Numbered from the stretch's first letter, positions 7,946 through 53,707 are shown. The stretch: 64,000 nucleotides of DNA from Candidatus Peribacteraceae bacterium (GCA_041661065.1 JBAZVD010000001.1:1089237-1153236); one strand, 5' to 3'. Translations and numbers: made by a program. The notes: generated by a model not told the origin, from the letters alone.

Positions 7946-8012
7946 GAGGATAGTATGGTAGCAGATTCTCACTTTTCTGCATGCTCTTGAGGAAGTTGTA
8001 TGACATGGGGAT

Positions 8013-8234: not shown

Positions 8235-8308
8235 AGACACAAGACAAAGCCTGCGAGCTGAAGATACGCTTGCTGGCTGTTGTGTATGTATATACATCGT
8301 CCATACAC

Positions 8309-8345
8309 TCATTTCCCATTTTGCATTTCCAATTTCTCATTTCCT
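8309..8345. repeat. Solo heptamer-repeat arm (AATGCAA/TTGCATT family) overlapping the antiporter stop
   Basis: CTCATTTCCCATTTTGCATTTCCAATTTCTCATTTCC matches the right arms at 20761-20807, 21209-21242 and 54518-54550. Confidence 0.7.
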
Positions 8346-30228: not shown

Positions 30229-30303
30229 TGGAGCCGCTTCGGGGACTCGAACCCCGGACCTACTCATTACAAGTGAGTTGCTCTACCACTGAGCTAAAGC
30301 GGC
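30229..30303 (-). tRNA. tRNA-Thr (anticodon UGU), CCA encoded
   Basis: The reverse complement folds as a cloverleaf: acceptor GCCGCTT/AAGCGGC, D arm GCTC-AGTGGTA-GAGC, anticodon arm ACTCA-CTTGTAA-TGAGT, T arm CGGGG-TTCGAGT-CCCCG, then TCCA. Confidence 0.95.
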
Positions 30304-30440: not shown

Positions 30441-30899
30441 GGGGTCTGCTCCTTCGATGATCGCTTCGGCGTAGTCCGCCAACGGCGGACGAAGCCTGAG
30501 AGGAACGTCCGGGCGCCATTGGAACGCCATGCGGGTAACACCCGTCCGCGCGCCACATATCCGGTAAAGGCGCGCGAGGACCAGTGCCACAGAGACGATA
30601 CCCCGCATCCTTCCTGGCAGGGAGAGCAGCAAAACATGTTCTGAGCTGTTGCATCTCTGCCGAGAAGGGTGCGGGGGGTGAAACGCCTCCCCCAGGGAGG
30701 ATCGTGCACTGCACGTGCATGCATGATCGGCAAACTCATGGTGGCGCAAGGAGGAATTGGGTTGCGGGAACCGGCGATGGTTCCGTCGCCCCCGCTACCC
30801 CTCCGCTTGAGACGGCGAACAATCGCCGTCCTAGAGAGATGATCATCCTTCCCGCGGTTGCGGGACAGACAGAACCCGGCGTATGAAGGAGCAGAACGT
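30441..30899 (+). ncRNA. rnpB: RNase P RNA (bacterial type A-like), ~459 nt
   Basis: GAGAGGAACGTCCGGGCGCC (cf. GAGGAAAGUCCGGGC), AGTGCCACAGAGACGATACCCCGC (cf. GUGCAACAGAAACAUACCGCC) and GGGACAGACAGAACCCGGCGTA (cf. ACAGAACCCGGCUUA). P1 pairing between GTCTGCTCCTT (30444-54) and AAGGAGCAGAAC (30886-97). Confidence 0.88.
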
Positions 30900-33359: not shown

Positions 33360-35069
33360 TTAGAATGCCAAGAAAAGCCTGTTACTAAACCATTCGCCGA
33401 AGGTCGCTCCATCTGCGAGCATACGACGTACTTCTTCGCATCGTTGCCGCACGGCCGGATCGGGTTCGGAGAACATCTGCCAGGGGGCGTCCAGCGGCAC
33501 CGCCGTGCAACGCTCCAGTTGTACAGTCGACACAAATGTTCGTATCCTCTCCGCATCAGGCTTCGTCATCATGAAGATGACGCGGCGGCCGTTGTCCGCT
33601 GCCAACTGTTTCCACCATCGTATCGCCACCGGATCCCGGAGCCGTTCATGCAGCACGACGCTTTGTTCGGGATCACCGTAGAGCGCTTGGAAATAGTGGA
33701 AGCCCCAATCAGCGGCCACCACCATGGAATTGCGGGCGACCGTGGGATCCAGAAGCACTTTGCGGAGCACCTCCTTTGACGAGTGTCTGCTGGGAATAAG
33801 GTTTTGGCGGGGGAATACCATGAAGTAACGGACGTTGAGGGCGAGGAAGAGCAGGAGCCATAGTCCGGTTACCGATCGTACGAAAGGCCGCACCCGTCTG
33901 CCTTTTACAACCAGCAGTCCTTTCACTGCGGCACCGATGGCGAGAAGAAGGAAGGGAAAGGTAAGAATGATATGGTGCATGCAAACGGCATTCTTCGTAC
34001 GGGCGACCATCGCAACGGTCAGCAGAAACGCGATGAACAGGGCGATGGACATCAAGACATACTCCCTCATCTCCTTCTCCTTCTTCCAGAGGACTAGCGA
34101 GAGGATCAGAAAAGCCGGAACGAACAGGAAGAGGAGAACGTAGTAGTACTGCCACAGCGGATCAAGCGGTGAAACGTAGTAGATACGCTGCGTCGCCTCT
34201 AGAGGATGCAAGAGGTACTCGAAAGCACGAGTGTGCCAGAGAGCGCCATGGAGAATTTCCCGAATGGAAAACATCTGGCTCTGGAGAAGTTGGGTGAGGA
34301 GAGGCCGCTCATTGCCTTGGAGAGGATGCGTGGAGAAAATGTACGAACCAGCCATCCCGGCACAGACGAGAATGGCGACTATGCTTTGGATAGCCAGTCG
34401 GGAACATGCGCCGCGACGAAGGAGAATTCGGCGATGACGAATGCAGGCAATGACGAAGAAGATGGCAATGCCCGGAGCGAACCAGAAATAGGAGAGCTTG
34501 ATCCAAATGCCAAGGAACATGACTACGGCAGATCCTAGTGCATAGCGCCACCGAAGAGTGGAGCACCAGCGATCGATGAGTATGTACAGGGCATAAACGG
34601 TACAAATTTGGGGCCCGACGGGACCGGTATCCACCAAGTGCTGAAAGGCATAGGGAAAGAAGAGCGAGAAGAGCACCGCAGTCACGGCAAAAGGAAAACG
34701 GAACGCGCGTGCAAACAGCGCCGCGCCCCCCATGAGGAAGAGCCAGCTGACGAGGCGTGCGGAAAGCGGACTCTTCCACAAAAGCCACAGCGGTAAGTAG
34801 TAGAGCGCGGGTATGCTGCCGACGTACAGGAACGAGCGCAACGGCAATACCAATCCCGTACCGAGGACATTCAGGGCGTGTGGATCACAATGGCCGTTGA
34901 TATCATTTCCGGGATACGCCCTGCACGCAATGATGTTGTAATAGATGAATTCATCCATGTCGTAAGGCACCACCACGGAGAAGAGCGTGACGACACAGAC
35001 GCTCGCGACCACTGTCAACACGACGGTGGTCCATGGGCGCGGAAGGAGGCGGCGGAGGGTAGGGGGCAT
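33360..35069 (-). CDS. Polytopic membrane protein, GT-C-fold glycosyltransferase candidate
   Basis: ATG at 35069 (MPPTLRRLLPRPWTTVVLTVV...). The first loop carries YDMDEFIYYN (acidic motif as in ArnT/PMT). More than 10 TM segments and a soluble C-terminal domain. Lies directly downstream of the pilin-like genes on the same strand. Confidence 0.65.
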   Translation of the reverse strand: MPPTLRRLLPRPWTTVVLTVVASVCVVTLFSVVVPYDMDEFIYYNIIACRAYPGNDINGHCDPHALNVLGTGLVLPLRSFLYVGSIPALYYLPLWLLWKSPLSARLVSWLFLMGGAALFARAFRFPFAVTAVLFSLFFPYAFQHLVDTGPVGPQICTVYALYILIDRWCSTLRWRYALGSAVVMFLGIWIKLSYFWFAPGIAIFFVIACIRHRRILLRRGACSRLAIQSIVAILVCAGMAGSYIFSTHPLQGNERPLLTQLLQSQMFSIREILHGALWHTRAFEYLLHPLEATQRIYYVSPLDPLWQYYYVLLFLFVPAFLILSLVLWKKEKEMREYVLMSIALFIAFLLTVAMVARTKNAVCMHHIILTFPFLLLAIGAAVKGLLVVKGRRVRPFVRSVTGLWLLLFLALNVRYFMVFPRQNLIPSRHSSKEVLRKVLLDPTVARNSMVVAADWGFHYFQALYGDPEQSVVLHERLRDPVAIRWWKQLAADNGRRVIFMMTKPDAERIRTFVSTVQLERCTAVPLDAPWQMFSEPDPAVRQRCEEVRRMLADGATFGEWFSNRLFLAF

Positions 35070-35107
35070 AGAGGAAAGATGCAAGAAGGATCCGCGCCGT
35101 TCTCCGT

Positions 35108-35569
35108 TCACCTCGTGATTTCCAAAAAGTTGCTGTTTTCCGCCATCCAAGCGGTCGCAGTGATGGAGCCGTCCGCATTCCGCCGCAGGGCGTACTGCGT
35201 TCCCGTACCCGTGGAGGGCAGCAGAGGATCGCGGGGGAGGACGGGGAGGTACGTCCCGATGAGCGGAGAGAGGTCCACGCCATTCTCCGCCGCGCATTCC
35301 CGGGAAGAGAGCGTCACGTTACATATTTCGCGCGATGTTCCCGCCTGCATGCCGGCGGGATACGATCCTTCTTCCGCCGCGAAGCGCGAGAGGGCGTCGA
35401 GGAGCGTCGTGAGGTCTTCTTGACGCCGTGCATCGCGGCGCTCACGAAGCTCCCCGGGAGGGAGGAAGAGGGAGAGGCCGAGGGAGAGGAGCAGGATGAC
35501 CGCGAAAAGAACGCCTGCAATCCAGGCAACGGAGCGGAAGGAGCCGACGGTATCGTGCGGTGCAGGCAT
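35108..35569 (-). CDS. Pilin-like protein lacking the class III (G/FTLIE) signal
   Basis: A TM anchor VAWIAGVLFAVILLLSLGLSLF is followed by RERRDARRQEDLTTLLDALSRFAAEEGSYP, which resembles the pilin alpha1-C helix. No G-F/V-T-L-x-E motif. Confidence 0.6.
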   Translation of the reverse strand: MPAPHDTVGSFRSVAWIAGVLFAVILLLSLGLSLFLPPGELRERRDARRQEDLTTLLDALSRFAAEEGSYPAGMQAGTSREICNVTLSSRECAAENGVDLSPLIGTYLPVLPRDPLLPSTGTGTQYALRRNADGSITATAWMAENSNFLEITR

Positions 35570-35601: not shown

Positions 35602-36300
35602 TTAAGAGGAAGAGCTGGAAGTGCTGGAACTGCTCGCGCTGCAGGGGAGATACGTCTGCGCATCGGAGCACATGAAACTCTGGCACACTTTCCACGTGTA
35701 GATCATCCCGGCGCAGCTGGGGGCGGAACACACTGCACCGCCGCACGCGGCCCCCCGCGGCTCATCGCCCGGCGGCAGTGTGAATGTTCCCTCAAACGTC
35801 CGTTCGTAGATATGGGGCGCCTGGAGGCGGATCGCCCTGCTGACGCGGAAGGAAACGCGAAAGCTTTGCAATAGGGTGGAGGCGGACGTGTTCCAGACGC
35901 GGAACTCATCCAAGGCCACTTGCGGCGAGGTGATGACCTGCTTGGTGGCGCGGCGGATGACCACCAGGGAGCCGCTGAGCGCACCGATGATGGTGGGGTT
36001 CATGGCGCCGCTCCCGGACTGGAGCGTGAGGACGATCCCTTCCTCTTGGGGAGGGGGATCCAGGATGCGTTCCGCCGCCGCAAGGCGCCCGATTTGCTGC
36101 AGCACCTGCAGGCCGTTCTGCTCCACCAGCGAAACCGTCTGTTGCAGCAGGCGGTTCTCCGTCGCCGAGAAGAGGAGCGGAAGCACCGTGAACCCCACCA
36201 CCGCGAAGATGGCGACAAAGACGAGCAATTCTATGAGCGTGACACCGGGACGCGCCAGCTTTACGGGAACGCCGGTATCGCGTGGAAGCAGGGTTATCAT
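35602..36300 (-). CDS. Prepilin-type pseudopilin (short paralog of the 988-aa protein)
   Basis: ARPG|VTLIELLVFVAIFAVVGFTVLPLLFSATENR. The ATG at 36300 overlaps the upstream stop as ATGA. About 190 aa align with the N-terminus of ORF 36297..39263. Poly-Ser tail. Confidence 0.8.
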   Translation of the reverse strand: MITLLPRDTGVPVKLARPGVTLIELLVFVAIFAVVGFTVLPLLFSATENRLLQQTVSLVEQNGLQVLQQIGRLAAAERILDPPPQEEGIVLTLQSGSGAMNPTIIGALSGSLVVIRRATKQVITSPQVALDEFRVWNTSASTLLQSFRVSFRVSRAIRLQAPHIYERTFEGTFTLPPGDEPRGAACGGAVCSAPSCAGMIYTWKVCQSFMCSDAQTYLPCSASSSSTSSSSS

Positions 36301-39263
36301 TCGGGAGCGAGAATGCAGGGACTGCATACGGCCCCCATACCTTTGACAGCACACTTGTCCGGGAAGCTTTGGAGACCGCCGCATCCGATTGCTCCCGCTC
36401 CAGGATTCTCCATGCAGAACTCACCTCCGGTAACGCATTCGTACATGCAATCGGTACTCCGCGCGGGATTCTGCCGTGGCCAGGTGCCGAAGGGCGGATA
36501 ACCGAGCTGATCCGGGCTCCACCTCGACTCACCTTCATGAGTATTGCACCAATGCTGTCCCCTGTAATCCACTACGGTTTCCGCGCTCCCGCATTCTCCA
36601 CCCTGCAGCTCCGCGATGCCGGTGTACGTTCTTTCGGTCGCCGTAGCCGACGTGACATAGCGGTAAATAGCCAACCCGCCCGAAAGCGTCGCTTCTCCCA
36701 AGAGCGTTCCCCCGTCAACGTAGAGCATCGCTTGCTGGATGGGGATGGTGTTGAGGTAAGCATCCCGGCAACTCATGGTGAGGGTCACCTGTGCGCCCGG
36801 CGCCACGGGGCCGGTGAGCACTGCACCGCCCACACTCGCCTCCAGCAAGCACGTTTCGGTGACACTGGGGCAGAAGCTGCAATCGTAGACCTGCTTCGAA
36901 CACATCCCTTTCTCCACACCGTTCACCGTCAGCGTATACGATTCCATCCCGGGCACGATACCCGCCGCGAATTGCCGGGTAGCCGTTTGGCCGTTCACGG
37001 TGGCGATTCCCCCCTCGATCTGTACGCTCCCTGCCAGCGCTTCCGTACAGGTGAAGGAAGCGATGACGTCCTCACTGGTGCAGACTTTATCCACGGGAGG
37101 CGCGAGCGTAGCTTCGGTGACGCCGTCGCAGGCACAAGTGAAGGAGGGGGTAGGTACTTCCGTACATCCGTCCACGCAAGCCTGATAGGTGCCGTATTCC
37201 GTTTCACCCACGCCGCAGGAAACGGAATACGGGCAACTGCCGCCGCAAGGCTGGCAACTCCCCATGGCGCAGGCACCGTTCATCCCCAAATTCGAAAGAC
37301 AGGGGCCCCCTTGATTTATGTAACACGTCTGTCCGTCAGGGGCTAACACTCCCGTCCCGCATTGGCCGTCCAGCGCACCTACGTAGCAGGGAACGTAGAG
37401 TGTCGTGGGGGTGGAACACTGGTCCGTGGCGGGGTCGCAGCAGTACGCGCACTCTCCGAGTATCGTCCCGCAGCTCAGGGGGCTCCCGTCCTCCTTCTTC
37501 ATGTCCACGCCGTTCACCGTGAGCACGTAGGAGTGCGTACCCGCCCCTGCGGGAGTGACATACGCCTTCACCTCGCCGTCCTGGACATAGTAAGGGTCGT
37601 TGCCGCTCACCGTAATGGTATCCGAGAGGCTAAACTCATGCGGCTCCGTTGTCCCATACCCGTCGAAGCACTCGTAATTGATGGAGAGCGTATCACCCGT
37701 ACAATAGGAACCGATGTGGGGCGTCGTATCCTCCACGGTGCACCGGCACCAATCGGGCAGGGAGAGATCCGAATACGTCACGGTGGTGGTGAGGGTGATG
37801 GGCGGACCCCCGACGGGTGTCACGTTCGCCGTGTAGGTGATGGTCCCCGCCGCCGCCGAATTCACCTGCCGCGAGGCGGTATTCGCCGCGATGACCGTGG
37901 CGGCGCCGTTGATGAAGGCGGTTTGGATATCCGCCGCCACCGGGGAACCGCCGGAGCTTTTCCAGCAGGTGAGGTTGAGGATGACGGGTTGGTTGATGTA
38001 GTACGGACCGTTCGCCGGGTTCTTGGCTTCCCACTGGCAAGTATACTGCTCAGCCGTGGGCGGCAGGTAGCAGCCGGCACCCACGTTCCACCCCAGGAAA
38101 TTGCAGAAGTTATCCCCCTCCGCATCCGGAATGCACTGCTGCCCCACGGGACAGTCCGCATCACTGCCGCATCCTCCCCCGCAGCCCGCCTGGGAAATCC
38201 AACCCGTGCAAAAACCGCCTTCGCAGACCGGGTAATCGCGCATCTGCCAAGCGGAGGTGTAACACACGGTAGGTGCACCGCAATCCGCATCGCACGTACA
38301 CGTCCTCTGGCAGAAGCCCGAAGGATTGCACATCTCGCCGGGAGGGCAGGCGCCGCACGACCCGGCACTGCTCGCCCCCCCCTGCAACAGGCACTCCGCA
38401 GTGCACCCCGTCCCCGGCGGGTCGCACTGCTCCCCCGTTTCCACCACACCGTTGCCGCAAACGGGCGCGGGTGCGCCGCAAACAGTCGTACACGCCGTTT
38501 GGGTGCTGTAGAAATCCCCCGCGAGCGCCGTGCATTCCGTTGCGGTCTTTGCCAAACAATTGTCTTCCGAACAGCAGTACCCTCCGCAATCCATGGGGAG
38601 GGACACTTCCTGGCATGCCTGTCCTTCACATACTTCCCAGGTATAGCTGCCACCCGCGCACGCGGGGGCAGCGCAGGCAACGCCTCCGCATGCCGACCCT
38701 GCCGTCCGGTCCGAAGGCGAAAGGGTGAAGAGCCCCTCAAATGTGCGCGCGTACACCCGCGGATCCTTGAACTGGATGGTGCGTTCCACCCGGAACGACA
38801 CGCGGAAACTCTGCTGGGTGGCCGAAGCGGAGGTGTTCTGGATCCGGAAATCCTTCACAACCACCTCCGATGACGTGACTTCCTGCTTCGTACGGTTGCG
38901 GATGATGATCATGGTGCCGCTCTGGACGCCGATTATGGTGGGATTCGTCGCTCCGCATCCCGTTTGGAGCGTGAGGACCGAGCCCTCCTGCTGCGGCGGA
39001 GGATCGGTGATGCGCTCCGCGTACTGGAGCCGGTAGCCGATGTTCTGAAGGACTTGCGCGCCGTTCTGCTCCACCAGCGACATGCTCTGTTGGTTCATCC
39101 TGTTTTCCGTGGCGGTGAAGAGGAGGGGGAGGACGGTGAACGCCACGATCGCGAACACCGCGACGAATACGAGCAACTCCACGAGTGTCACTCCCGGCCG
39201 CAGCCGACGGGATGCGTGCGCCGACCGCATCGGGATGACTCCGGAAGAAAGAAGAGGGGACAT
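36297..39263 (-). CDS. Giant prepilin-type pseudopilin with Cys-rich, repeat-containing C-terminal extension (adhesin candidate)
   Basis: RLRPG|VTLVELLVFVAVFAIVAFTVLPLLFTATENR. Includes a CGNGVVETGEQCDPPG module (Myxococcus-type Cys-rich repeat pattern), dozens of Cys residues, and recurring beta-rich modules (..SYVLTVNGVDMK.., ..SYTLTVNGVEKG..). Confidence 0.85.
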   Translation of the reverse strand: MSPLLSSGVIPMRSAHASRRLRPGVTLVELLVFVAVFAIVAFTVLPLLFTATENRMNQQSMSLVEQNGAQVLQNIGYRLQYAERITDPPPQQEGSVLTLQTGCGATNPTIIGVQSGTMIIIRNRTKQEVTSSEVVVKDFRIQNTSASATQQSFRVSFRVERTIQFKDPRVYARTFEGLFTLSPSDRTAGSACGGVACAAPACAGGSYTWEVCEGQACQEVSLPMDCGGYCCSEDNCLAKTATECTALAGDFYSTQTACTTVCGAPAPVCGNGVVETGEQCDPPGTGCTAECLLQGGASSAGSCGACPPGEMCNPSGFCQRTCTCDADCGAPTVCYTSAWQMRDYPVCEGGFCTGWISQAGCGGGCGSDADCPVGQQCIPDAEGDNFCNFLGWNVGAGCYLPPTAEQYTCQWEAKNPANGPYYINQPVILNLTCWKSSGGSPVAADIQTAFINGAATVIAANTASRQVNSAAAGTITYTANVTPVGGPPITLTTTVTYSDLSLPDWCRCTVEDTTPHIGSYCTGDTLSINYECFDGYGTTEPHEFSLSDTITVSGNDPYYVQDGEVKAYVTPAGAGTHSYVLTVNGVDMKKEDGSPLSCGTILGECAYCCDPATDQCSTPTTLYVPCYVGALDGQCGTGVLAPDGQTCYINQGGPCLSNLGMNGACAMGSCQPCGGSCPYSVSCGVGETEYGTYQACVDGCTEVPTPSFTCACDGVTEATLAPPVDKVCTSEDVIASFTCTEALAGSVQIEGGIATVNGQTATRQFAAGIVPGMESYTLTVNGVEKGMCSKQVYDCSFCPSVTETCLLEASVGGAVLTGPVAPGAQVTLTMSCRDAYLNTIPIQQAMLYVDGGTLLGEATLSGGLAIYRYVTSATATERTYTGIAELQGGECGSAETVVDYRGQHWCNTHEGESRWSPDQLGYPPFGTWPRQNPARSTDCMYECVTGGEFCMENPGAGAIGCGGLQSFPDKCAVKGMGAVCSPCILAPE

Positions 39264-39279: not shown

Positions 39280-39705
39280 TTACGTCGTGGGACAGTTCGT
39301 GAAGGTTTTTACCTCGTTCCAAGACCGGACCTTCACCTGCGGAAACAACTGCGTCACTTCCACTTCCAGGCGCCGCAACGCGAGGCCGCTGCGCCCTTCC
39401 GCACAGAACACGTTCTCGGCGTTTGCGTTGAAACCGATCGGGAGAATGAGGCACGAGCCCCGCGGCCAGCTGTAATACTCCTGCCCGCCGTACGCCATGT
39501 CGTTGCGCGCCTCCAGAATACCTCGTTCCACGCAGGAGCGCGCGAACTCCAACGCTTGCATGGACTGCTCCACAGAATACGCCGTATGTTCCGCGGCGCC
39601 GCCCAAGAGGAGCAGGGATGCCGCGGTGGCGGCGGCAATGACCCCCACCGCGAGGACGCTGAGGAGGAACACGAAGCCGGGGCGTGATCGGGGGTTCAGG
39701 TGCAT
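39280..39705 (-). CDS. PilX-like minor pseudopilin candidate
   Basis: MHLNPRSRPGFVFLLSVLAVGVIAAATAASLLLLG (hydrophobic N-terminus after PG). 141 aa. Overlaps the upstream gene by 10 nt. Confidence 0.6.
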   Translation of the reverse strand: MHLNPRSRPGFVFLLSVLAVGVIAAATAASLLLLGGAAEHTAYSVEQSMQALEFARSCVERGILEARNDMAYGGQEYYSWPRGSCLILPIGFNANAENVFCAEGRSGLALRRLEVEVTQLFPQVKVRSWNEVKTFTNCPTT

Positions 39706-41180
39706 GGCCGGGTGGAAGCGCCGCCGGGGCGCAAAATGATGACGTCGCGGGATGTGACCAGATAGAGGCGGTCCCGCACGGGGTCATAGAGGACGTCCTG
39801 TCCCACGGCAGGCGACGTGGCGTTGAAGGATTTCAGCTCCCCCGCCCCCGTAAAGTTCGCGATGCTCACCACCTGCAAGGCTTTCCTGCCGGAAACCGCA
39901 GCCAGGAACGCGTACTTCCCGTGCGGATCCAAACTCACGCCCGTAATGCTCCCGCTGCCGAGGTGCCGCAAAAAGGTTGTCACCGCTCCGTTCACAATCT
40001 CGGAATACCACGCAGGGCTTTGGGATGTTGCGGCATTCTTCTGGCACCCGATGAGGAGCCCCGAACCGCTCACGGCGACGGATTGGGAGGGTTGGTCCCC
40101 TCCCCAGGCCGTGAGATTATGGATCGAATTGGGGTTGAGGTTGGCATGCGTCGTATCCGTGATCCCCAACTCCATCCCTCCATCGGACAGCGCAAGAAAG
40201 GCGCCGGTACCGGCTACTGCAATACCCTTTACATCAAATCCCGCTTGCGGCGCCAATTGCCCCTGCTTGAGAGGCGTCACGGCGCCACTGTTGCTGATAT
40301 TGAACGAGAGGATCTCCGGGTTCGCCGAATTGGTGAGGCCGACGTAGAGCGTATTCCCCTTGATGGCGAGCGACGTGGGTGTTCCCGCGATGTTCACGTT
40401 CACGACGGGATTCAGCGGCGACGGGGAGGAGAGGTTTTCCACGCTGAGGACGCGGAGTTCCGCATTCACGTCGGAAGTAAGGAGGTAGAGCCGCCTCCCC
40501 TTCGCCACTACCGCCGTGGCGGTGAGCCCCCCGTAATCGTACGTCGAGGTGGCATGGGTGGAGAGGTTGAGGATGTGGAGAGCGGGTGCGACTCCTGATA
40601 CGACGTACGCCCGATCCTCCACCACGGCGATATCCTTGAGTGTGGGGTTCCCGCCGGGGGCGTACCGCCACTCCTCCGTGAGGTTGGCCCAGTCCCCTAT
40701 GGCGCACGTGGATCGCCAATCCGCAAGCTCCGACGTAAGAACCAGGCTGCCGGAGCGCCCGATGCCATGCTTCCACTTCGTCTGTGCCACGATGCGCCGC
40801 ACATTCAAAGCCGGCGTGGAAATCTGGACGTTCGTCTTGTACCCGTCCAACGCGTCCGTCTCGCTCCCGGCGAACTCCCACTTGCCGGATGCCCCCAACA
40901 GCACACCATGCTGCCCATCCGTGAGGCTGCTGAAATTCACCCCCCGCAAGTCCCGCGTCGCCTCCAGGGAACGCTCGGACAGGAATGTCGCGCGCACGCG
41001 GTCCCCTGCCATTTCCGTCCCCTCCTGGCCGTTCATGAGAACGAGGCCGGCGGACATGAGGAACATGGCGAAGAGCGCAATGCCCATCATCACCTCCACC
41101 AGCAGGAATCCCCCGCGGCGATGCGCTGCGGTGAGGGGAAGCCGGCGGGGAGGAGGGGCGAAGAGCACGGAAGGGATCAA
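39696..41180 (-). CDS. Prepilin-type protein with beta-propeller (LVIVD-repeat-like) body
   Basis: HRRGG|FLLVEVMMGIALFAMFLMSAG, with recurring ..AVVEDRAYVV.., ..VAKGRRLYLL.., ..AIKGNTLYVG.., ..AVAGTGAFLA.. blades. The probable start TTG at 41180 overlaps the upstream stop as TTGA (alternative GTG at 41168). The ORF part upstream of 41180 overlaps the preceding gene. Confidence 0.75.
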   Translation of the reverse strand: MIPSVLFAPPPRRLPLTAAHRRGGFLLVEVMMGIALFAMFLMSAGLVLMNGQEGTEMAGDRVRATFLSERSLEATRDLRGVNFSSLTDGQHGVLLGASGKWEFAGSETDALDGYKTNVQISTPALNVRRIVAQTKWKHGIGRSGSLVLTSELADWRSTCAIGDWANLTEEWRYAPGGNPTLKDIAVVEDRAYVVSGVAPALHILNLSTHATSTYDYGGLTATAVVAKGRRLYLLTSDVNAELRVLSVENLSSPSPLNPVVNVNIAGTPTSLAIKGNTLYVGLTNSANPEILSFNISNSGAVTPLKQGQLAPQAGFDVKGIAVAGTGAFLALSDGGMELGITDTTHANLNPNSIHNLTAWGGDQPSQSVAVSGSGLLIGCQKNAATSQSPAWYSEIVNGAVTTFLRHLGSGSITGVSLDPHGKYAFLAAVSGRKALQVVSIANFTGAGELKSFNATSPAVGQDVLYDPVRDRLYLVTSRDVIILRPGGASTRPCT

Positions 41181-42382
41181 CTGGGGATGAATTGGAGGAG
41201 CAGCACCGTATCCGTGTAGTCCTCGCTCTCCGGCGGGGGAGCCATGACGGCGCTGAGTTCCGTAATCACCACCGCGGCGCAGGCATTGAACGGCAAGCCG
41301 GGGAACTGTACGGATAAACCGTCCACCGAGAGGAGGTTGTAGCTCTGGAGCACACCCTTGAGTTCCGTGTTGTCGAAGAACGCTGGAATGAGGTCGCCGT
41401 TGCGGAGGATAAGAGCTTTCTCCGGCTCCGTAGCGCTGTTCGTGTCGCCCGTGGAATCGTACGTCGTCCACCCTTCCTGGCTGAAGTACCCGTGCATCCG
41501 GAGCGCAACCAGGGAATTCTGCTGGATATTCGTTTCCGTCTCCACCCGTCCCGCGTACGTGGGATCGTCTTCTTGGTTGTACAGCTTCTTCCACTGTGCC
41601 CCGCCATTCTCCGTGAACTTCATGGTGACGGGGATGTCCGGTCCGGCCCCGTACGTCAGGTTCTCCGCGAGGGTCGTGACGGTCATATCCATTTTCTGCA
41701 CCGCCCGTATGTTGCCGCTTGTTTCGATGGAAATCGTATCGCTGCACGAGACGCTTCCGCCGCCCCCGACGCACACTCCCAGAACATCCCCATGCGATTG
41801 GTGGTTCGGCCAACCGGCCAGCGGAAGGGTCATCGTCTGTTGGTTGTGCAGCCCCGGCTTGTGGCAGAGCGTCACGGGATCACCCAAGCTGGAGGAATTC
41901 CCGATGTACTCATCCCCCCCCATGTACAACGTGATGGAGACGGTGCGCTGCTGGTTATCCAATCCCTGGAGGACGATGGTCCCGGAGGCGCTGGCTTTCC
42001 CCTCCAGCTTCGTGAAGGCCACTTCCAGGAGCACGCCGTTGACCACGACGGAAGAAGGCATGGGGTAGACCTCGTCGTGAGCGGGGTCCCGCGTTGCGTA
42101 GGAGCTTCCTTTATAGAGCACGCCGGCCGGCACGTAGAACCCCCAGCCGGAATCCCCCTGTCCCGTTTGGGAAAGCATCTTTGCGCGCGCAAACCCTTGC
42201 ACCACGTTCTCCTTGGCCATGTCCAAATCCGACCGGATTTGGGAACGGCGGAAGAACACCACGGAGAACACCATGACGATGCTCAGGATGCCGATGACCA
42301 TCATCGCCTCGACGAAAGTGAAACCCCCCCTCACTCGCGGAGCTTTGGAAGAAAGGCCGCAGCGGGTTTTCAGCGTTGCCAT
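41177..42382 (-). CDS. Prepilin-type pseudopilin (GspH/FimT-like N-domain) with C-terminal extension
   Basis: PRVRGG|FTFVEAMMVIGILSIVMVF. Paralogous to ORF 42559..43203 over ~190 aa, including TLCHKPG..QTMTLPLAGWPNHQSHGDVLGVC. ATG at 42382. Confidence 0.8.
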   Translation of the reverse strand: MATLKTRCGLSSKAPRVRGGFTFVEAMMVIGILSIVMVFSVVFFRRSQIRSDLDMAKENVVQGFARAKMLSQTGQGDSGWGFYVPAGVLYKGSSYATRDPAHDEVYPMPSSVVVNGVLLEVAFTKLEGKASASGTIVLQGLDNQQRTVSITLYMGGDEYIGNSSSLGDPVTLCHKPGLHNQQTMTLPLAGWPNHQSHGDVLGVCVGGGGSVSCSDTISIETSGNIRAVQKMDMTVTTLAENLTYGAGPDIPVTMKFTENGGAQWKKLYNQEDDPTYAGRVETETNIQQNSLVALRMHGYFSQEGWTTYDSTGDTNSATEPEKALILRNGDLIPAFFDNTELKGVLQSYNLLSVDGLSVQFPGLPFNACAAVVITELSAVMAPPPESEDYTDTVLLLQFIPS

Positions 42383-42558
42383 GATTGCAGCGGATGGAGA
42401 CGGCTTACCGTACTCCCGCAAAGAGAAGGGAAGGGAGAGCACTCATCGTACGATCCGCTGGAACATGCTGAAAGGTCACCCCGGCGATTGCCCTTGACCT
42501 CACGGGACACGTGTTGCATGAGCATCAGGCGGTGCCATGCTGCCGCGCTCATCCGATA

Positions 42559-43203
42559 TCAGGGACAGGGGTTCACGGGAAAACTCTCGCAGGGGCCCAG
42601 AACATCTCCGTGCTTCTGGTGGGCCGGCCACGCGTTATCGGGAATGTGAAGCGTATGCTGGGCATGCCCCTGGCAGTGGCAGACGGTCAAACGGTCGGGG
42701 AACATGATGGGGATCCCCTCCGTGGAAATGGTGATGAGGATGCTTTCCCGTTCATTCTCCAAGCCCAGGAGGAGAATGCTTCCCGTGGCGCTCGGTTTCC
42801 CTTCCAATTGCGAGTACGTGAGCTCCGTCAGGCTGCCGGATGCCGTGATGGTGGGCGGCATGGGATAGGATTCATCGTACTGCGGATCCCGCGTTTCGTA
42901 CGTACTTCCCTGAAAAAGCGTCCCTGAGGGCACATGGAATCCCCACGGAGCGGCTCCTTCACCGTTCTGGGAGAGCGTTTGCGCGCGCGCCAACGCCTGG
43001 ACCACCTGTTCCGCGCTGCGCTGGACATCGCCGCGGATGAGCAGTTGGCGCAGGAAGGGAACGGAAAGACCGGAGAGCACCGCGAGGATACCCAGGGCAA
43101 TAAGGATTTCCAACAGGGTGAAGCCCTCCTTCGCCCTCGCGAAGTGCACCCTGAGTGAAAACGGAGAAATCGGGGCTGCGGAGGGCAGGTCTCGGCGTCG
43201 CAT
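42559..43203 (-). CDS. Prepilin-type pseudopilin (GspH/FimT-like)
   Basis: RAKEG|FTLLEILIALGILAVLSGLSVPF and C-terminal TVCHCQGHAQHTLHIPDNAWPAHQKHGDVLGPC. ATG at 43203. Confidence 0.8.
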   Translation of the reverse strand: MRRRDLPSAAPISPFSLRVHFARAKEGFTLLEILIALGILAVLSGLSVPFLRQLLIRGDVQRSAEQVVQALARAQTLSQNGEGAAPWGFHVPSGTLFQGSTYETRDPQYDESYPMPPTITASGSLTELTYSQLEGKPSATGSILLLGLENERESILITISTEGIPIMFPDRLTVCHCQGHAQHTLHIPDNAWPAHQKHGDVLGPCESFPVNPCP

Positions 43204-43290
43204 GGCAGGAAGTGTAAACCATCTGCTGTCGGTTATCACCTTTACTTCTCCGGCGATCCTTCCTGCCGGTGCTCAATCCAGACTCTTCCC

Positions 43291-45579
43291 TCATTGATTC
43301 ACGCTCCCCACGATGCTGTAGATGGGCACGATGATGGCGAAGGCGATGGTCCCCACCAGCGCGCCGATGAAGAGGAGCAACATCGGTTCCAGAATCACCG
43401 GCAGTTTTTGCGCGGTCTCGTTGGCCTTCTTCTCATAGATGTCCGCGATCTTCAGCATGATCTTCGAGAGCGATCCCGTGCGTTCCCCCGTCATCACCAG
43501 CTGCTGGACGGAGAGGGGGAGGAGTTTGTTGCTCCCGCGGATGGCGGCGAAACTCTTGCTGAAGGAATCCCCCACGAGGATGTGGTCCAGCAGGCGCTGG
43601 TAAAACCTCTGGTAGGCGATGATGGTGGTCACGTCCACCAGGGAACGCAACGAATCCACCAGCGGCACGCCGGCTTGGAGCAGGCCGCCCACTATCACGC
43701 CGAAGCGCGCAATGGTGGCTTCCCAGAGGAGGGCTCCGATGCCGGGAATGCGGAAGATGAACCACTGGAACACGATCTGCAGAGGTGTGTACTTCACCAG
43801 GATCGCAAGAAGGATGGAGATCGCGATCGTGGCGGGCAAGATGGTGGTGCCATGTTCCGCAAACATGTTGGTGAAGCCGATCAAGAGCCGCGTGACCAGG
43901 GGCAGCGGCACATTGAGAGACGAGAGCACGCTGATGAGGTTGGGCAGCACGAACATCCCCAGCCCCATGATGACGATGATCATGAGGACCAGGACGATGG
44001 CGGGATAGATCATGGCCATCTTCACCTTCCCCCGCAGCGCCTCATCCTTCTCCTGCTGGCCCGACAAGTACTGCATGTTCTCCGCCAGGTTCCCCGCCTC
44101 CTCCCCGATGCGGACCAGGGCCAAGGCATCCGGCGTGAAGAAGTGCTCCATCTGCATGGCGCGCCACAGCGGGCTTCCGCTCTCCACCCTGTCCACAATG
44201 CGCTGGATGAGGGCGCGCGCCTGTCTGTTGTGCGTCTCCATTTGGAGCGTGCGCAGGGAATCGATGAGCGGCAACCCCGCATTGAGCATGGTCGCCAGGT
44301 TCTGGATGATTTGGAACCGCTCCTTCCCCATACCCACATGGCGGAGGGTATTGGTGATACCCACGAAGATGTTTTCGCGGCTGCGGAGGGAGAGCCGCTT
44401 CTTGGGGAGAGCCGTGCTGGGGACCTGCACCTGTTGCGCCGCTTCCAGTTCTTTCTTCTTCTGTGCCTCTTCTTCTTTACGGTGCTTCTCCGCCTGCTCC
44501 CGCAAGGCTTTCTCGTCTTCTTGCTGGCGCTTGCGCATCCCCTCCAGTTGTTGCTTCTCCTCGGGTGTCAGCTCCCGGGGAGGAGCGGCGTCCGCCGCTT
44601 GCGAAAGCAGCGGGGCGGGCTGCATTCCCGGGGACGGGGGGGGCAGCATTTGCTTGCGGATGAACGTTCCTCCCTGCGGTTGCAGGAATTTTCCGCCGTC
44701 CTTTTCCTGCGCCTGCAGTACGGCATCCAAGTCCACGGGGGCGCCGGGCTGTTCCTCCGCCTTCGCCGTCTTCTCCTTCCCGGGGGCGGCCGAGTCGGCA
44801 CCGAGTGGTATGTCCATGCGCACCTCTGCTGCTTTCGACCGGGAAAGAGCGGGATGCGCGCCGGGAGCGGCAGACCTGCGCCAGAAGGCGAAACGTTCCC
44901 AGAACCCCGGCTGCCTCTGTCCCGGTCGGGTGGGATGCGCTTCCACGGAAAGGATTTTCTCCCGTTCCGCGGGAGGGACTGCCGCATGAGGGGCTTCTTT
45001 GGTGAGGGGAAGGAACTCCCCTTTCCGCGGCTCTTCGGACGCGCTTCCCTCTCCCCCTTCCGCCGAGGAAAGTTCTCCTTCGCGCAGGTGCTGCGGCTTG
45101 ATTTCCCCCAGGATGGCGTCCAGGTCCACTGCGCGCAGCGTGTCCTCCACCTTTTTCCCTCCGACGGGAGGAACGGGCGGGGCCGCGGGAGGCGCGGGGA
45201 TGGACGGTTCCGATTCCTCATCCTCCAGGAGGGTCTGTGAAAGTTCTTCAGCCGGTGGCGGCTCGGCTTCTGCATCCGCGGGCGTGAGCGACGGAGGAAG
45301 TTCCAAATTCGCCGTTCCGAGCATCGCGTCCAAGTCCACCTGCCGCAGGAGCGCTTCCACGTCCTGCTTGGTCTTCCCTTCCGGATGGCTCACGGGTTTC
45401 CGGTGGCGCTTGTAATGGCGGCGCCTGCGGTGCGCCACTCCCCGCTTCCCTTCCCCGTCCTGTCCGGCTTCCTCCCCTTCCGTATGGCTTGCCATGCCCC
45501 TGCCTTTCGAGAGGAACGGCAGGAACGACCGTAGCAGCGAGAAGAATGCCGACTGTTTCCGCTCATTCTTTGTTGCCAT
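43291..45579 (-). CDS. pilC: Type IV pilus/T2SS platform protein (PilC/GspF/ComGB family) with ~360-aa low-complexity N-terminal extension
   Basis: The C-terminal ~400 aa carry two T2SSF repeats (..NLATMLNAGLPLIDSLRTL.., ..GGLLQAGVPLVDSLRSL..) and 3 TM segments. The N-terminal part is E/K/P/A-rich. Confidence 0.9.
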   Translation of the reverse strand: MATKNERKQSAFFSLLRSFLPFLSKGRGMASHTEGEEAGQDGEGKRGVAHRRRRHYKRHRKPVSHPEGKTKQDVEALLRQVDLDAMLGTANLELPPSLTPADAEAEPPPAEELSQTLLEDEESEPSIPAPPAAPPVPPVGGKKVEDTLRAVDLDAILGEIKPQHLREGELSSAEGGEGSASEEPRKGEFLPLTKEAPHAAVPPAEREKILSVEAHPTRPGQRQPGFWERFAFWRRSAAPGAHPALSRSKAAEVRMDIPLGADSAAPGKEKTAKAEEQPGAPVDLDAVLQAQEKDGGKFLQPQGGTFIRKQMLPPPSPGMQPAPLLSQAADAAPPRELTPEEKQQLEGMRKRQQEDEKALREQAEKHRKEEEAQKKKELEAAQQVQVPSTALPKKRLSLRSRENIFVGITNTLRHVGMGKERFQIIQNLATMLNAGLPLIDSLRTLQMETHNRQARALIQRIVDRVESGSPLWRAMQMEHFFTPDALALVRIGEEAGNLAENMQYLSGQQEKDEALRGKVKMAMIYPAIVLVLMIIVIMGLGMFVLPNLISVLSSLNVPLPLVTRLLIGFTNMFAEHGTTILPATIAISILLAILVKYTPLQIVFQWFIFRIPGIGALLWEATIARFGVIVGGLLQAGVPLVDSLRSLVDVTTIIAYQRFYQRLLDHILVGDSFSKSFAAIRGSNKLLPLSVQQLVMTGERTGSLSKIMLKIADIYEKKANETAQKLPVILEPMLLLFIGALVGTIAFAIIVPIYSIVGSVNQ

Positions 45580-47314
45580 GGTGAACGATGAGGTCGGGAG
45601 GCGCGGCCACGCGCAGGAGCTCTTCGATGGTGGTCATGCCCGCCTTCACCTTGGAGAAGCCGTCATCGAACATGTACTTCATCCCCTGGTCGCGGGCGAC
45701 ATTGTTGAGGTCGCTGCTGGAGGCGCGCGACACGATGAGCTGCTCCACTTCCTGCGTGATCATGAGGAGCTCGTAGATGCCCACGCGGCCTTTGTAGCCG
45801 GTGCCGTTGCACGTCTCGCATCCCTTCCCCCGGTAGAGCCGCGCCGTTTCGCCCTTGTCGAAATAATCCTGCGCGCCCAGGAACAGCTTGGAGGCTTCCG
45901 CATACGGCAGCGAGTAGCTGAAGCGGCACTGTGGGCAGATGCGGCGCACGAGGCGTTGCCCGATGACCACTTCCAGCGTGGAAGCGAGGAGGAACGGCTC
46001 CACGCCCATGTCCAGGAGACGGGGCACAGCCGTTGCGGCGTCGTTGGCGTGCAGGGTGGAGAAGAGCAAGTGGCCCGTGAGTGCCGCGTTCACCGCGATG
46101 GACGCCGTTTCGCCGTCACGGATTTCACCCACGAGGATGATGTTGGGGTCTTGGCGGACGAGCGCGCGCAACCCGGTGGCGAAGGTGAGGTTGGTATCCG
46201 GGTTCACCTGGATGTGGTTGATGCCCGGCACTTTGTATTCCACCGGATCCTCGATGGTGGAGATGTTCACGTCGGGCTTGTTGCGCATCTTCATCAGCGC
46301 GTACAGCGTGGTGGATTTCCCTGAGCCGGTGGGCCCCGTGGTGAGGATCATCCCGAAAGGCTTGTGCGCGACCTTCTCCAGTATTTCCCGGTACTCGTCG
46401 CTGAAGCCGAGGTCCAGCAGCGTGAGCGTGCGCACGTATTCGGAAAGCAAGCGGCAGACGATCTTCTCGCCGTCCACGATGGGCACGATGGAGACACGGA
46501 TGTCCATGGTGTTGTCGTTCGGCGTGCGGTAGCGGATCGCCCCGTCCTGCGCCGCGTAGTGCTCGTCGATCTGCATGTTGGATTCGATCTTGATGCGGTT
46601 CACCACCCCCTCGTAGTACTCCCGGGGAATGCGCCCCGCCTCGTGCATCACGCCGTCCACGCGGAAGCGCACCATGACGAACTTCTCCTGCGGCTCGAAG
46701 TGGATGTCGGATGCGCGGAGCTCGATGGCGTCGTTGAAGATTTCCGTGATGATCTCCGGGGCCACCTTGCGCTGCTTGGTGATGATCGCCTGGAAGCGGG
46801 TGGCGAGCGGCTTGCGGTAGTGGACGAAGAAGCTCTCAATCGCCCCGCGGGGCGCGTAGAGGAATTGGATCCTCCCCATGAACTTCTGCCGCTTCTGTTT
46901 GGCCGCCAGTTCCGCCCCTCCCGGCTGGTCGGGGAAGATGACGGCCGCCTGCCCCAAGTTCCAACGCACGCCTTCCTCCAGCTTCACGTTGCTGGGATCG
47001 GATGTGGCCACCATGACGCCGTTCTCATCCTGTTTGATCACCACGCAGCTGTAGGCGCGGGCGATCTCTTCGGGGAGCAGCGAGACGACTTCCGGCGTGG
47101 GCTGCACCTGCTGGAGGTCCGCGAACGGGAGCTTGTAGTACTCCGCGAGCGCGCTCTCGTATAAATCCTCGGTGAGGAGCCCCATCTCCACGAGCACCAC
47201 CTTCAATGTGACCGTCCGCTCCTGCGCCTGCTCCAGCGCCTGCTTGAGTTCCTCCTCGCTCACATAGCTTTGCTCCACGAGAATTTTCCCGAGATCGGCG
47301 TCGTTCAGGGGCAT
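45563..47314 (-). CDS. pilB: Type IV pilus assembly ATPase (PilB/GspE/ComGA family)
   Basis: T2SSE_N domain, Walker A GPTGSGKSTT, Asp box, Walker B ILVGEIRD, His box, and tetracysteine CPQC...CETCNGTG. Confidence 0.95.
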   Translation of the reverse strand: MPLNDADLGKILVEQSYVSEEELKQALEQAQERTVTLKVVLVEMGLLTEDLYESALAEYYKLPFADLQQVQPTPEVVSLLPEEIARAYSCVVIKQDENGVMVATSDPSNVKLEEGVRWNLGQAAVIFPDQPGGAELAAKQKRQKFMGRIQFLYAPRGAIESFFVHYRKPLATRFQAIITKQRKVAPEIITEIFNDAIELRASDIHFEPQEKFVMVRFRVDGVMHEAGRIPREYYEGVVNRIKIESNMQIDEHYAAQDGAIRYRTPNDNTMDIRVSIVPIVDGEKIVCRLLSEYVRTLTLLDLGFSDEYREILEKVAHKPFGMILTTGPTGSGKSTTLYALMKMRNKPDVNISTIEDPVEYKVPGINHIQVNPDTNLTFATGLRALVRQDPNIILVGEIRDGETASIAVNAALTGHLLFSTLHANDAATAVPRLLDMGVEPFLLASTLEVVIGQRLVRRICPQCRFSYSLPYAEASKLFLGAQDYFDKGETARLYRGKGCETCNGTGYKGRVGIYELLMITQEVEQLIVSRASSSDLNNVARDQGMKYMFDDGFSKVKAGMTTIEELLRVAAPPDLIVHHGNKE

Positions 47315-47854: not shown

Positions 47855-49477
47855 ATGACGAAGCGCGCCCTCCTTTCCGTGTCGGACAAAGCAGGTCTCG
47901 AAGACCTGGGAAAGGGCTTACAGAAGCTTAAATTCCACATCATTTCCACGGGAGGAACCGCGCGTTTTTTGCGGGAGAAAGGGGTGGAGGTGACGGACGT
48001 TTCCGACGTGACCAAGTTCCCCGAGTGCTTCTCCGGCAGGGTGAAGACCCTGCACCCCCTCATTGCGGGCGGCATACTGTTCGAGCGCAGGAACGAGGAG
48101 CACCGCAGGCAGGCGAAAGAGTTGGGGATAGAGCCGATCGACGTGGTGGTGGTGAACCTGTATCCGTTCGCCCAAACCGTGAACGATCCGAGCAAGACGA
48201 GGGAGGAGGCTGTTGAGCAAATCGACATCGGCGGGCCCACCCTCCTGCGTGAGGCGGCGAAGAACCACAGGGACGTGACGGTCGTGTGCGACCCGGGTGA
48301 TTACGGACGCGTCGTACGGGAGCTGGAAGCGAACGGAGAAACCACCGAACAGCTCCGGCGGGAACTCGCCGCGAAGGTGTTCCTCCACACCGCCGCGTAC
48401 GACGAGAAGATCGCCGAGTACCTTTCGGAAGGGACCTACCGCGGCGTGATGCTCACGGGAGGAACGCCGCTGCGGTACGGGGAGAACCCGCACCAGTGGG
48501 GGAAATATTACACGTTGTTCGATTCCCTCTCCCCCCTACCCCCTCCCCCGGTGGGGGAAGGGGAGCACGCTCGAAGCATTCAAACAACAACAGAACAACA
48601 CACATCCCCTTCCCCCCTTGGGGGAAGGGCTAGGGTAGAGGGATGGGGCATCCTCTTACAGGGGAAACCTCTGAGTTATCTGAACATCCTGGACGCCGAC
48701 GGCGCATGGTCCGCGGTGCATGACTTTTCCGACCCCACCGCCGTCCTCGTGAAGCACGCGACCCCCTCGGGCATCGCATCCCACCCGGACATCACCGAGG
48801 CGTTCCAGCGCGCGTACGACGCCGACCGTCTTTCCGCCTTCGGCGTGATCATCGCGCTCAACAGGACGTGCACGGCCGCCATCATCCAAAAACTGATCGA
48901 CCAGAAGATCTTCACGGAGGTGATCGTGGCGCCGGAGTACGAGCCGCAAGCCCTGGAACTGCTCAAGAAGAAGCCGAACCTGCGCGTGATCAAGCAGCAC
49001 AACGGCGAGCGTATGAAAGGCCGGGTCCTCTACCGCTCCGTGATGGGCGGAATGCTGGTGCAGGAGAGCGATTCGCGCGTGGTGACGGAGAAGGACCTGA
49101 CGACGGTGACCAAGGTGAAGCCGACCGCGGAGCAAGTGCGCGACCTCCTCTTCGCGTGGCGCGCGGTGAAGAGCGCCAAATCGAACGCCATCGTGTTCGC
49201 CAAAGACCAGGTGACGGTCGGCATCGGCTCCGGTCAGACGAGCAGGGTGGATGCGACGTGGATTGCGGCCAAGAGGGCGGGAGAGAATTGTCAGGGCGCG
49301 GTGATGGCCAGCGACGCCTTCTTCCCCTTCCCCGATTCCGTGGAGGAGGCCGCCAAGCACGGCATCGCGGCCATCATCCAACCGGGTGGCTCCGTGCGCG
49401 ACGCCGAAGTGTTCGCCAAAGCGGAGGAGCTGGGAATGGTGATGGTCACCACGGGGATACGGGCATTTCGCCATTAA
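47855..49477 (+). CDS. purH: Bifunctional AICAR transformylase / IMP cyclohydrolase PurH (with ~40-aa repeat-derived insertion)
   Basis: [22 protein letters not shown]...[10 protein letters not shown]...VKTLHP...VVVNLYPF; LRYGENPHQ; [16 protein letters not shown]; [10 protein letters not shown]; the C-terminus ends in ..GIRAFRH. Confidence 0.95.
48525..48648. repeat. G/C-tract double-hairpin element (CCCCTCCCC family) in frame inside purH
   Basis: CCCTCTCCCCCCTACCC, CCTCCCCCGGTGGGGGAAGGGG, A-rich spacer, CCCCTTCCCCCCTTGGGGGAAGGG, CTAGGGTAGAGGGATGGGG. Translated as ..[41 protein letters not shown].. Confidence 0.9.
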
Positions 49478-53563: not shown

Positions 53564-53606
53564 AGAGCAGGGGGAGCGCTGAGTGCTAGGGGTGATGGGA
53601 CGGGAA

Positions 53607-53690
53607 GAGTCCGAGGATTCCGAGGATTCCGAAGAAATACATGAAAAGTCCTCGGCATCGTCGGAATCCTCGGCATCCTCTCCACCGGAG
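53607..53690. repeat. Nonamer hairpin (CGAGGATTC / GAATCCTCG family)
   Basis: Left arm GAGTCCGAGGATTCCGAGGATTCCGAAG; right arm GTCCTCGGCATCGTCGGAATCCTCGGCATCCTC. Same family as 19781-19893. Confidence 0.9.
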
Positions 53691-53707
53691 AACCTTCGAT
53701 ACACTCC

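Follow-up and report, generated by a model that had tools for sequence, protein, structure and literature searches.

Within a 64,000-nucleotide stretch from Candidatus Peribacteraceae bacterium (GCA_041661065.1 JBAZVD010000001.1:1089237-1153236, hereafter the window, with positions counted from its first letter), two adjacent minus-strand genes in a type IV pilus operon, here called L (36297-39263) and S (35602-36300), encode paralogous pilin-like proteins of 988 and 232 residues, respectively. We consider it likely that L is a modular minor type IV pilin of Peribacteria that arose as a duplicate of S and that is probably displayed at the pilus tip, where it would act as an adhesin. The adhesin role and the tip location are proposed by analogy with the systems discussed below. 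The reading is based on the paralogy of the two proteins, the complete pilin module retained by L, the conservation of its long extension in a second species, and the setting of both genes among those for the pilus assembly machinery.

An ATGA at 36297-36300 contains both the stop codon of L and the start codon of S, and the same four-nucleotide overlap is found in a related locus, L001, where the one gene ends at 2196 and the other starts at 2193. The L reading frame agrees with a database gene call (P0001) and with a 942-residue ortholog in another locus (L005), and that of S with its homologs and an AlphaFold2 model. The database call begins at Met12 to give 977 residues, and a GGAG lies 9 nt upstream of the Met12 ATG, so that either Met1 or Met12 could serve as the start of L, for which a mature molecular weight of about 100 kDa was computed. 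GC content is uniform along L and equal to that of the rest of the window. S aligns with L by BLASTP at 62% identity over 211 aa (E 6e-81), from the RPG/VTL[IV]ELLVF prepilin motif (the slash marks the predicted cleavage site here and below) to the ACGG..C.AP.CAG..YTW.VC cysteine knot that forms the cysteine-rich end of S, and the blocks VSLVEQNG, DPPPQ.EG, NPTIIG, and QSFRVSFRV are common to both. The relationship is still visible in the DNA as a 165-nt stretch of 75% identity (39037-39201 versus 36089-36253), the sole repeat in the window that involves L. Beyond the knot S carries an 11-residue Ser-rich tail and ends in SASSSSTSSSSS. A first-pass annotation of this DNA had described a translationally coupled tandem pair of these lengths and positions, with shared N-terminal blocks and a poly-Ser tail on the short form, and in all of this it was correct.

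Both proteins begin as type IV pilins do, with a short basic leader, Gly-1, Glu+5 (E29 in L), and a hydrophobic stretch, arranged in class III signal motifs that read …RRLRPG/VTLVELLVFVAVFAIVAFTVLPLLF in L and …KLARPG/VTLIELLVF… in S. The leader of L (aa 1-24, ending in RRLRPG; 39192-39263) is defined by its sequence, by a sub-threshold N_methyl match, and by a match to the family profile, and prepilin peptidase is predicted to cleave it between Gly24 and Val25. The pilin module that follows (aa 25-190; 38694-39191), delimited by AlphaFold2 and the family alignment, has a hydrophobic N-terminal helix, about 52 residues in the full helix, and an antiparallel beta head, and it leads into a knot of six cysteines (C192, C197, C202, C212, C217, and C226; 38586-38693) that is likewise defined by the family alignment. 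Full-length L was run in AlphaFold2 with 63 aligned sequences, and the model has a helix at residues 27-79 and strands up to residue 223, with a predicted local distance difference test score (pLDDT) above 90 over aa 22-228; the S model has an N-terminal helix and a beta head with a mean pLDDT of 88.8. Both models show the ‘lollipop’ fold of type IV pilins. All six knot cysteine columns are invariant in 20 family members (alignment A1), and in the 63-row alignment four of the six are invariant and the other two are at least 90% conserved. L has every residue that is invariant in the family. When the profile of the S family was compared with solved type IV pilins among PDB sequences, the N-terminal helix alone was matched (E 3e-4). 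The NCBIfam equivalog models gave sub-threshold scores confined to the same helix, namely 16.9-17.8 bits for GspI (cut-off 44.35) and 13.7-14.4 bits for ComGE (cut-off 49) with L and S, and 11.8 bits for GspJ (cut-off 64.85) with S alone; the GspH and GspK models matched neither protein. The signal motif, the modeled helix and beta head, and the presence of PilB, PilC, and further pilins in the operon and of PilD in the window together bear out the pilin-like nature that the first-pass annotation had assigned to both proteins.

The relationship between the short and the long protein becomes clear from the wider family. A search of the 90%-clustered protein collection gave 136 homologs of S at E<=1e-3, mostly of 200-245 aa and from Peribacteria/Peregrinibacteria. 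When the family profile was run with HMMER against 1.84 billion representative proteins, 64 representatives reached E<=1e-30, most of them about 210 aa long. The extended members are L (977 residues), P0167 (686), P0003 (575), P0130 (571), and P0175 (492), together with P0202 (399) and P0212 (368) at weaker scores. Their tails are mutually unrelated and, as read by eye, are made up of DUF4215 arrays, BNR-like ‘SSDYGxTW’ repeats, Calx-beta-like segments, and Ser-rich linkers. A census with one genome per species (GTDB) gave 42 loci with the family, and every one of them has an S-type protein. Together with the names of the homologs, these loci place the organism in Candidatus Peribacteria (Peregrinibacteria, Candidate Phyla Radiation). 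In 39 of these loci the protein ends 0-2 residues past the sixth knot cysteine, and it is after this same cysteine, where the canonical family ends, that the extension of L begins. A long tandem paralog was found in three loci, L005 (tail of 723 aa), L006 (342 aa; the same sequence as L003), and L007 (363 aa; the same locus as L002), where the scan used the pattern QQT… and L-type proteins have QQS, so that unlinked long copies may have been missed. A neighbor-joining tree of about 210 positions, built without support values, places the pilin module of L beside the S clade of its own lineage and apart from the P0003 and P0130 long forms; the comparison suggests that long forms arose more than once. 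S is the ancestral, canonical, core subunit of the family and L is a rare derived duplicate. The proposal that the short paralog might be a decoy finds no support in this distribution, in which S is near-universal and L is the rare derived copy.

The extension that sets L apart is 762 aa long and starts directly after Cys226, the sixth cysteine of the knot. It holds 66 of the 73 cysteines in the protein, which amounts to 8.7% cysteine versus 0-2% in ten housekeeping and pilus-machinery proteins of the window, and it is strongly acidic (pI 4.05; 23 Lys+Arg versus 75 Asp+Glu). Its first segment (aa 227-300; 38364-38585) combines a CC-x-C module with a degenerate DUF4215 (Myxococcus-type Cys-rich) repeat, as defined by alignment to an ortholog fragment, P0002, and to the long pilins of L002 and L003. 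The first-pass annotation had called the CGNGVVETGEQCDPPG module a Myxococcus-type repeat, and it does align to DUF4215 repeats, at 53% identity over 30 aa to those of a related pilin; the motif CGNGVVETGEQCD… likewise aligns with repeats of the ortholog and of the L002 and L003 long pilins. However, Pfam DUF4215 (PF13948, cut-off 27 bits) has no hit in L itself at E<=10, and L differs from PF13948 proteins in having one truncated copy within an extension made mostly of other modules. The ortholog P0002 has a near-canonical DUF4215 repeat, to which the L module aligns, that scores 22.4 bits and is thus also below the cut-off, and elsewhere the scores are 35.6 bits in P0003 and 106.9 bits in the 1147-aa pilin of L002, which has 11 repeats. 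We take the DUF4215-type module of L to be a degenerate, truncated remnant.

The remainder of the extension alternates between cysteine-rich segments and putative beta modules. A cysteine-rich segment (aa 301-404; 38052-38363), delimited by the ortholog alignment A2, includes a 31-residue block that is identical in the ortholog, SCGACPPGEMCNPSGFCQRTCTCDADCGAPT, and since its amino acid identity to the ortholog is 73% with the synonymous rate (dS) saturated, this segment is conserved at the protein level. Then come beta modules M1 (aa 405-505; 37749-38051), assigned by jackhmmer from M3 with a domain E of 1e-15, and M2 (aa 506-600; 37464-37748), assigned by hhalign and jackhmmer and ending in SYVLTVNGV. 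A cysteine-rich spacer (aa 601-705; 37149-37463) with an insert of about 61 aa that has no counterpart in the ortholog (alignment A2) separates these from module M3 (aa 706-797; 36873-37148), which ends in SYTLTVNGV and is defined by homology to L003 and by AlphaFold2 strands at pLDDT 60-80. Module M4 (aa 798-900; 36564-36872) is a divergent fourth copy, assigned from a weak match to a hidden Markov model (HMM; E about 0.1) and from the same length and motif pattern. The distal end is a Cys/Trp/Pro-rich C-terminal domain (aa 901-988; 36300-36563), delimited by blocks conserved in the ortholog, TDCMYEC and FCMENPGAGAIGCGG, and it is the candidate ligand-binding part of L. A BLASTP self-comparison of L gave no internal repeats. 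M2 and M3 are paired by hhalign (probability 78%, E 2e-5), and a jackhmmer search of a small database with M3 as the query brought in M2 and M1, at a domain E of about 1e-15, and, weakly, M4. These profile comparisons support three homologous beta modules in L and make a fourth probable. Of the earlier description of at least three beta modules with the signature (S/T)Y.LTVNGV, the three modules are recovered by iterative HMM search, but the exact signature [ST]Y.LTVNGV occurs twice in L, at residues 578 and 775, and the third copy at 880 is degenerate (RTYTGIAEL). A profile of the beta modules found nothing significant among PDB sequences. An enzymatic match would, according to the first-pass annotation, have told against an adhesin, and Pfam, NCBIfam, and PDB-sequence searches revealed no enzymatic domain in the extension.

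The fusion of pilin module and extension is also found in a second species. The fragment P0002, 731 aa from Hainich groundwater, is 65% identical to the extension of L and keeps all of the shared cysteines, with two modular indels, in that L lacks one 25-aa cysteine-rich insert and has one extra insert of about 61 aa. A species-representative genome (L005) has a complete L ortholog of 942 aa that is 99.9% identical to P0002 and has both the motif KRPG/VTLVELLVF and the same fusion junction. In L001 and L005 the L ortholog overlaps an S ortholog (85% identical) by the same four nucleotides, and genes for a 153-aa protein and a membrane protein come next; a metagenome scan added one further contig with an L ortholog, again from Hainich. 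Between L and the L005 ortholog the pilin module has 83% amino acid identity, a nonsynonymous rate (dN) of 0.10, and a dN/dS of 0.15, and the extension has 66% identity, a dN of 0.25, and a dN/dS of 0.20 (Nei-Gojobori), values that are rough because dS is near saturation. At nonsynonymous sites the extension has evolved at about 2.5 times the rate of the pilin module. By these estimates, the L fusion is conserved under purifying selection in a second species. That the 988-aa reading frame might instead be an artefact of a frameshift or of an assembly join to a separate cysteine-rich gene, or a decaying pseudogene, is a notion with next to no probability, for which nothing was found to speak, and one ruled out by the junction …QEVSLP.xC with its CC module in the 942-aa frame of L005. 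The same junction is present in two Hainich groundwater assemblies (L001 and L047), the alignment is continuous with the shared cysteines kept, dN/dS is about 0.2, and the GC content matches the window. The fusion artefact that the first-pass annotation had named as a danger to its reading is thus dispelled by an ortholog with the same junction, by independent assemblies, and by purifying selection. Its expectation of a hypervariable extension was not borne out, given a dN/dS of about 0.2, conserved shared cysteines, and no template/variable repeat pair: as to a diversity-generating retroelement, no repeat of at least 40 nt pairs the extension with another site in the window, a reverse transcriptase not having been searched for specifically.

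Modular pilins of this general kind are known. More than 1,200 such proteins in 264 architectures have been described, many of them in the Candidate Phyla Radiation (CPR), where the largest one noted is an 860-aa protein of Falkowbacteria (PMC8179133). L has the same makeup, a complete pilin module followed by C-terminal modules that are also found in other proteins or carriers. In Streptococcus sanguinis the vWA module of the pilin PilB is an adhesin and the pilin PilC has a lectin module (Raynaud et al. 2021, PMC8179133). Like these two, L has a pilin module followed by a C-terminal non-pilin module and is a minor pilin in a pilus operon with a proposed role as tip adhesin, but S. sanguinis PilB and PilC have one recognizable domain each, whereas the extension of L has about nine segments, 8.7% cysteine, and no curated family, and a paralog with the same pilin module but no extension is present beside L. 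The Saccharibacterium Nanosynbacter lyticus TM7x has a beta-propeller minor pilin, PilX2, that is needed for efficient host binding and not for filament extrusion, and a large-domain minor pilin, PilX1, that is a proposed tip protein (PMC11623550). These are, like L, CPR minor pilins with large C-terminal domains, but those domains are of beta jelly-roll and beta-propeller type rather than cysteine-rich stalks and belong to another phylum, and the comparison is one of architecture. CofB of enterotoxigenic Escherichia coli and TcpB of Vibrio cholerae are tip-located type IVb minor pilins that initiate assembly (PMC8179133), and they also have a pilin module followed by a linker and beta-rich domains. 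Unlike L, they belong to type IVb systems of diderms, with extensions that are much shorter and not cysteine-rich, and no homology of CofB or TcpB to L was detected in PDB sequence searches. Nor does L belong with the PilY1/PilC-type tip adhesins, as it has a pilin N-terminus and matches no such Pfam family.

Large cysteine-rich extracellular proteins with weak similarity to Myxococcus repeats, and with a proposed role in attachment, were reported from Peribacteria (Anantharaman et al. 2016, PMC4736985). They come from the same bacterial class as L; pilin N-termini are not described for them, and the word ‘pilin’ is absent from the supplementary tables. Both modular pilins, including those of CPR, and cysteine-rich surface proteins of Peribacteria were therefore already known, and the locus shows no new kind of machinery. 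What is new is that at least some of the cysteine-rich arrays of Peribacteria are carried by minor pilins encoded in the pilus operon and that, judging from the sequence comparisons, L goes back to a duplication of the core pilin S and related modules recur on different carriers in sister species.

Based on these precedents, we put forward a hypothetical mechanism in which PilD would cleave L after Gly24 and the minor-pilin priming complex would accept the pilin module of L in the position otherwise filled by S. This complex would come to lie at the pilus tip. There the acidic extension, about 76 kDa in size and with up to 33 disulfides, would stand out as a rigid stalk, and its conserved distal domains would bind a ligand on a surface or on another cell. 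S would be the plain subunit needed for assembly, and since L and S are co-transcribed and translationally coupled, plain and decorated tips would both be made by the same cell. The machinery is at hand, with PilB and PilC in the same operon and PilD in the window. The pilus-tip adhesin proposed by the first-pass annotation thus fits the published modular pilins (PMC8179133) and TM7x PilX1 and PilX2 (PMC11623550), and its adhesive role is one that we infer.

Several observations weigh against the mechanism as proposed. The Pfam N_methyl scores of L (18.5 bits) and S (18.4 bits) are below the gathering cut-off of 21.2, and a Foldseek search of the PDB with the S model gave no significant homolog, with noise such as levivirus coat proteins and no minor-pilin class among the matches. 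As the pilin head matches no solved minor-pilin class, the steps in which L takes the same slot as S and reaches the tip rest on analogy. The extension, modeled with the single available ortholog, has a pLDDT below 50 over most of its length, with patches of strands between 730 and 830 at 60-80, and the L model gave nothing against the PDB at E<=1e-3 in Foldseek. The best match, to immunoglobulin (Ig) domains 14-15 of filamin C (E 0.046, probability 0.93), is non-significant and is compatible with, rather than evidence for, an extension of Ig-like sandwiches. An L-type extension is also very rare, since the protein searches and the metagenome scan gave the Hainich ortholog, that is, one other population, as its sole homolog among the matches listed, beyond which more distant relatives may have escaped notice, and it lacks the hypervariability that might be expected of a host-contact surface.

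Some of these observations would also fit a surface protein held in the membrane, in which the class III signal and the helix would serve for secretion and anchoring and which would never be polymerized. A model for this would be the Sulfolobus ‘bindosome’, where sugar-binding proteins have signals of the pilin type. An extension of 762 aa is bulky for a filament subunit, the solved-structure search placed the pilin head in no minor-pilin class, and a 153-aa pilin-like protein encoded next to S has lost the canonical motif in this lineage, an indication that pilin-like genes can drift away from assembly. We nevertheless regard this alternative as unlikely, as L retains the whole pilin head, the cysteine knot, and every family-invariant residue, and thus not the anchor alone, constraint is stronger on its pilin module than on the extension, and the gene, coupled in translation to S, is part of the minor-pilin block. 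It is also improbable, in our judgment decidedly so, that L is borne on the pilus with a function other than adhesion, either as a rigid spacer through a surface layer or for the capture of DNA or nutrients. Modular pilins with a DNA-binding function (ComZ) and with predicted peptidase modules are indeed included in the survey of PMC8179133. The excess of acidic over basic residues and the pI of the L extension are nonetheless unfavorable for DNA binding, and no catalytic family was found in Pfam, NCBIfam, or PDB sequences. Moreover, repeated beta modules and disulfide-rich repeats are usual in the stalks of adhesins. A modular minor pilin with a probable adhesive role at the tip is therefore the reading that we retain for L.

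The pilus operon runs on the minus strand in the order PilB, PilC, four pilins of 226, 421, about 496, and 141 aa, L, S, the 153-aa protein, a membrane protein, and a PAS histidine kinase. The PilB-like assembly ATPase (T2SSE and MshEN; 45563-47314; Pfam E 7.8e-120) is followed by a PilC-like platform protein (T2SSF; 43291-45579; Pfam E 6.6e-47) that is unusually long at 762 aa and has its best T2SSF match from residue 425. Next to it are a 226-aa pilin of the short 197-type (42559-43239; N_methyl 25.5 bits, TIGR02532) and its paralog, a 421-aa pilin of the long 197-type (41177-42442; N_methyl 21.8 bits) with a tail of about 200 aa that matches no family. A pilin of about 496 aa with a beta-propeller-like body and the motif G/FLLVE (39696-41190, start codon uncertain) is assigned by homology, with 42% identity to a 502-aa protein of L003 and 37% to a 521-aa protein of L004 that has a weak LVIVD hit. 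The 141-aa pilin-like protein (39280-39705), recognized from its sequence, lacks Glu5 (RPG/FVFLL), as do its homologs in L002, L003, and L004. The absence of Glu5 is also a feature of GspK of type II secretion systems, and in this respect the 141-aa protein is GspK-like. On the 3' side of S, the 153-aa pilin-like protein (35108-35569), assigned by homology, has a degenerate prepilin motif without Glu5 (N-terminus …TVG/SFRSVAWIAG…); its ortholog in L001 is 70% identical, and a 151-aa homolog in L004, 31% identical, has the canonical RRG/FTLIELL. This gene type is present as two tandem copies in many loci. The prepilin peptidase PilD (peptidase A24; 52793-53704, minus strand; Pfam A24_N_bact E 7e-26 and Peptidase_A24) lies 13 kb from the L/S pair.

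Between the pilin block and the histidine kinase is a gene for a polytopic membrane protein of about 570 aa (33360-35297, minus strand, with a likely start near 35069) that has no Pfam or PDB match. Of the loci compared, only the window, L001, and L005 have it, and these are the lineages with a Ser-rich S tail. A function as a (pilin-)glycosyltransferase was considered for it and set aside as a guess with no Pfam or PDB support. Just downstream of the histidine kinase are an RNase P RNA (class A, 165.8 bits; 30445-30899) and a tRNA (30232-30303), both of them ordinary.

The L/S pair, we found, is one of several short/long pilin pairs in Peribacteria operons, a feature absent from the first-pass annotation. 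Of the 197-type, the window has a short form in the 226-aa pilin and a long paralog in the 421-aa pilin. A long form with a tail of about 230 aa is found in most Peribacteria loci, and in L018 and L041-L044 the tail measures 719-876 aa. Long paralogs of the 141-type occur in L002 (1147 aa; 442-3885) and L003 (1221 aa; 6339-10004) and consist mostly of DUF4215 repeats. The 1221-aa pilin of L003 also has modules that match M3 (38% identity, E 3e-12) and M1 (E 3e-5) of L, and one module family is therefore present on different pilin carriers. Long forms of the S-type and 141-type are absent from L004, a more distant relative, whose operon comprises a response regulator, PilB, PilC, pilins of 197, 521, 143, 210, and 151 aa, and a histidine kinase. 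Plain and decorated copies are thus known in some lineages for three pilin-like types (197-type, 141-type, and S-type), and giant tails of 700-1050 aa are found on a different carrier in different lineages. We offer, as a tentative and still doubtful extension of the proposal for L, the possibility that Peribacteria assemble their pilus tips combinatorially, with disulfide-rich and beta modules from a shared toolkit exchanged among carriers and species. In a separate observation, locus L042 (JAIPIN010000007.1), labeled as a Kiritimatiellales bin, contains a Peribacteria-type pilin operon with an S-type pilin that is 36% identical and a stop-free reading frame of about 1000 codons for a 197-type pilin, and its placement may be a binning error.

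Elsewhere in the window are two sets of repeated, non-coding-looking elements about 6 kb apart (1823-2262 and 8017-8233), with no Rfam family match there. They share a perfect 52-nt copy with an internal hairpin (2126-2177 and 8182-8233), flanked by copies of 40-84 nt at 80-83% identity, and the set at 1823-2262 lies some 850-1300 nt downstream of a partial 16S rRNA gene (1-982). G/C-rich palindromes (CCCCCTCCCCCGATGGGGGAGGGGG-like) recur at 20292-20346, 26103-26146, and 48525-48566, a pattern that would suit intergenic hairpins.

What is known of how CPR bacteria find partner cells and hold on to them comes largely from a few Saccharibacteria in culture. The locus described here joins two lines that had been separate, those of the modular pilins and of the cysteine-rich surface proteins of Peribacteria, and L is a concrete candidate for an attachment device in which the short and the long member of the pair are directly comparable. 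If decorated tips do set partner recognition in the combinatorial manner outlined above, they would be host-range determinants of an uncultured group of episymbionts and would serve as markers of host specificity that can be read from sequence.

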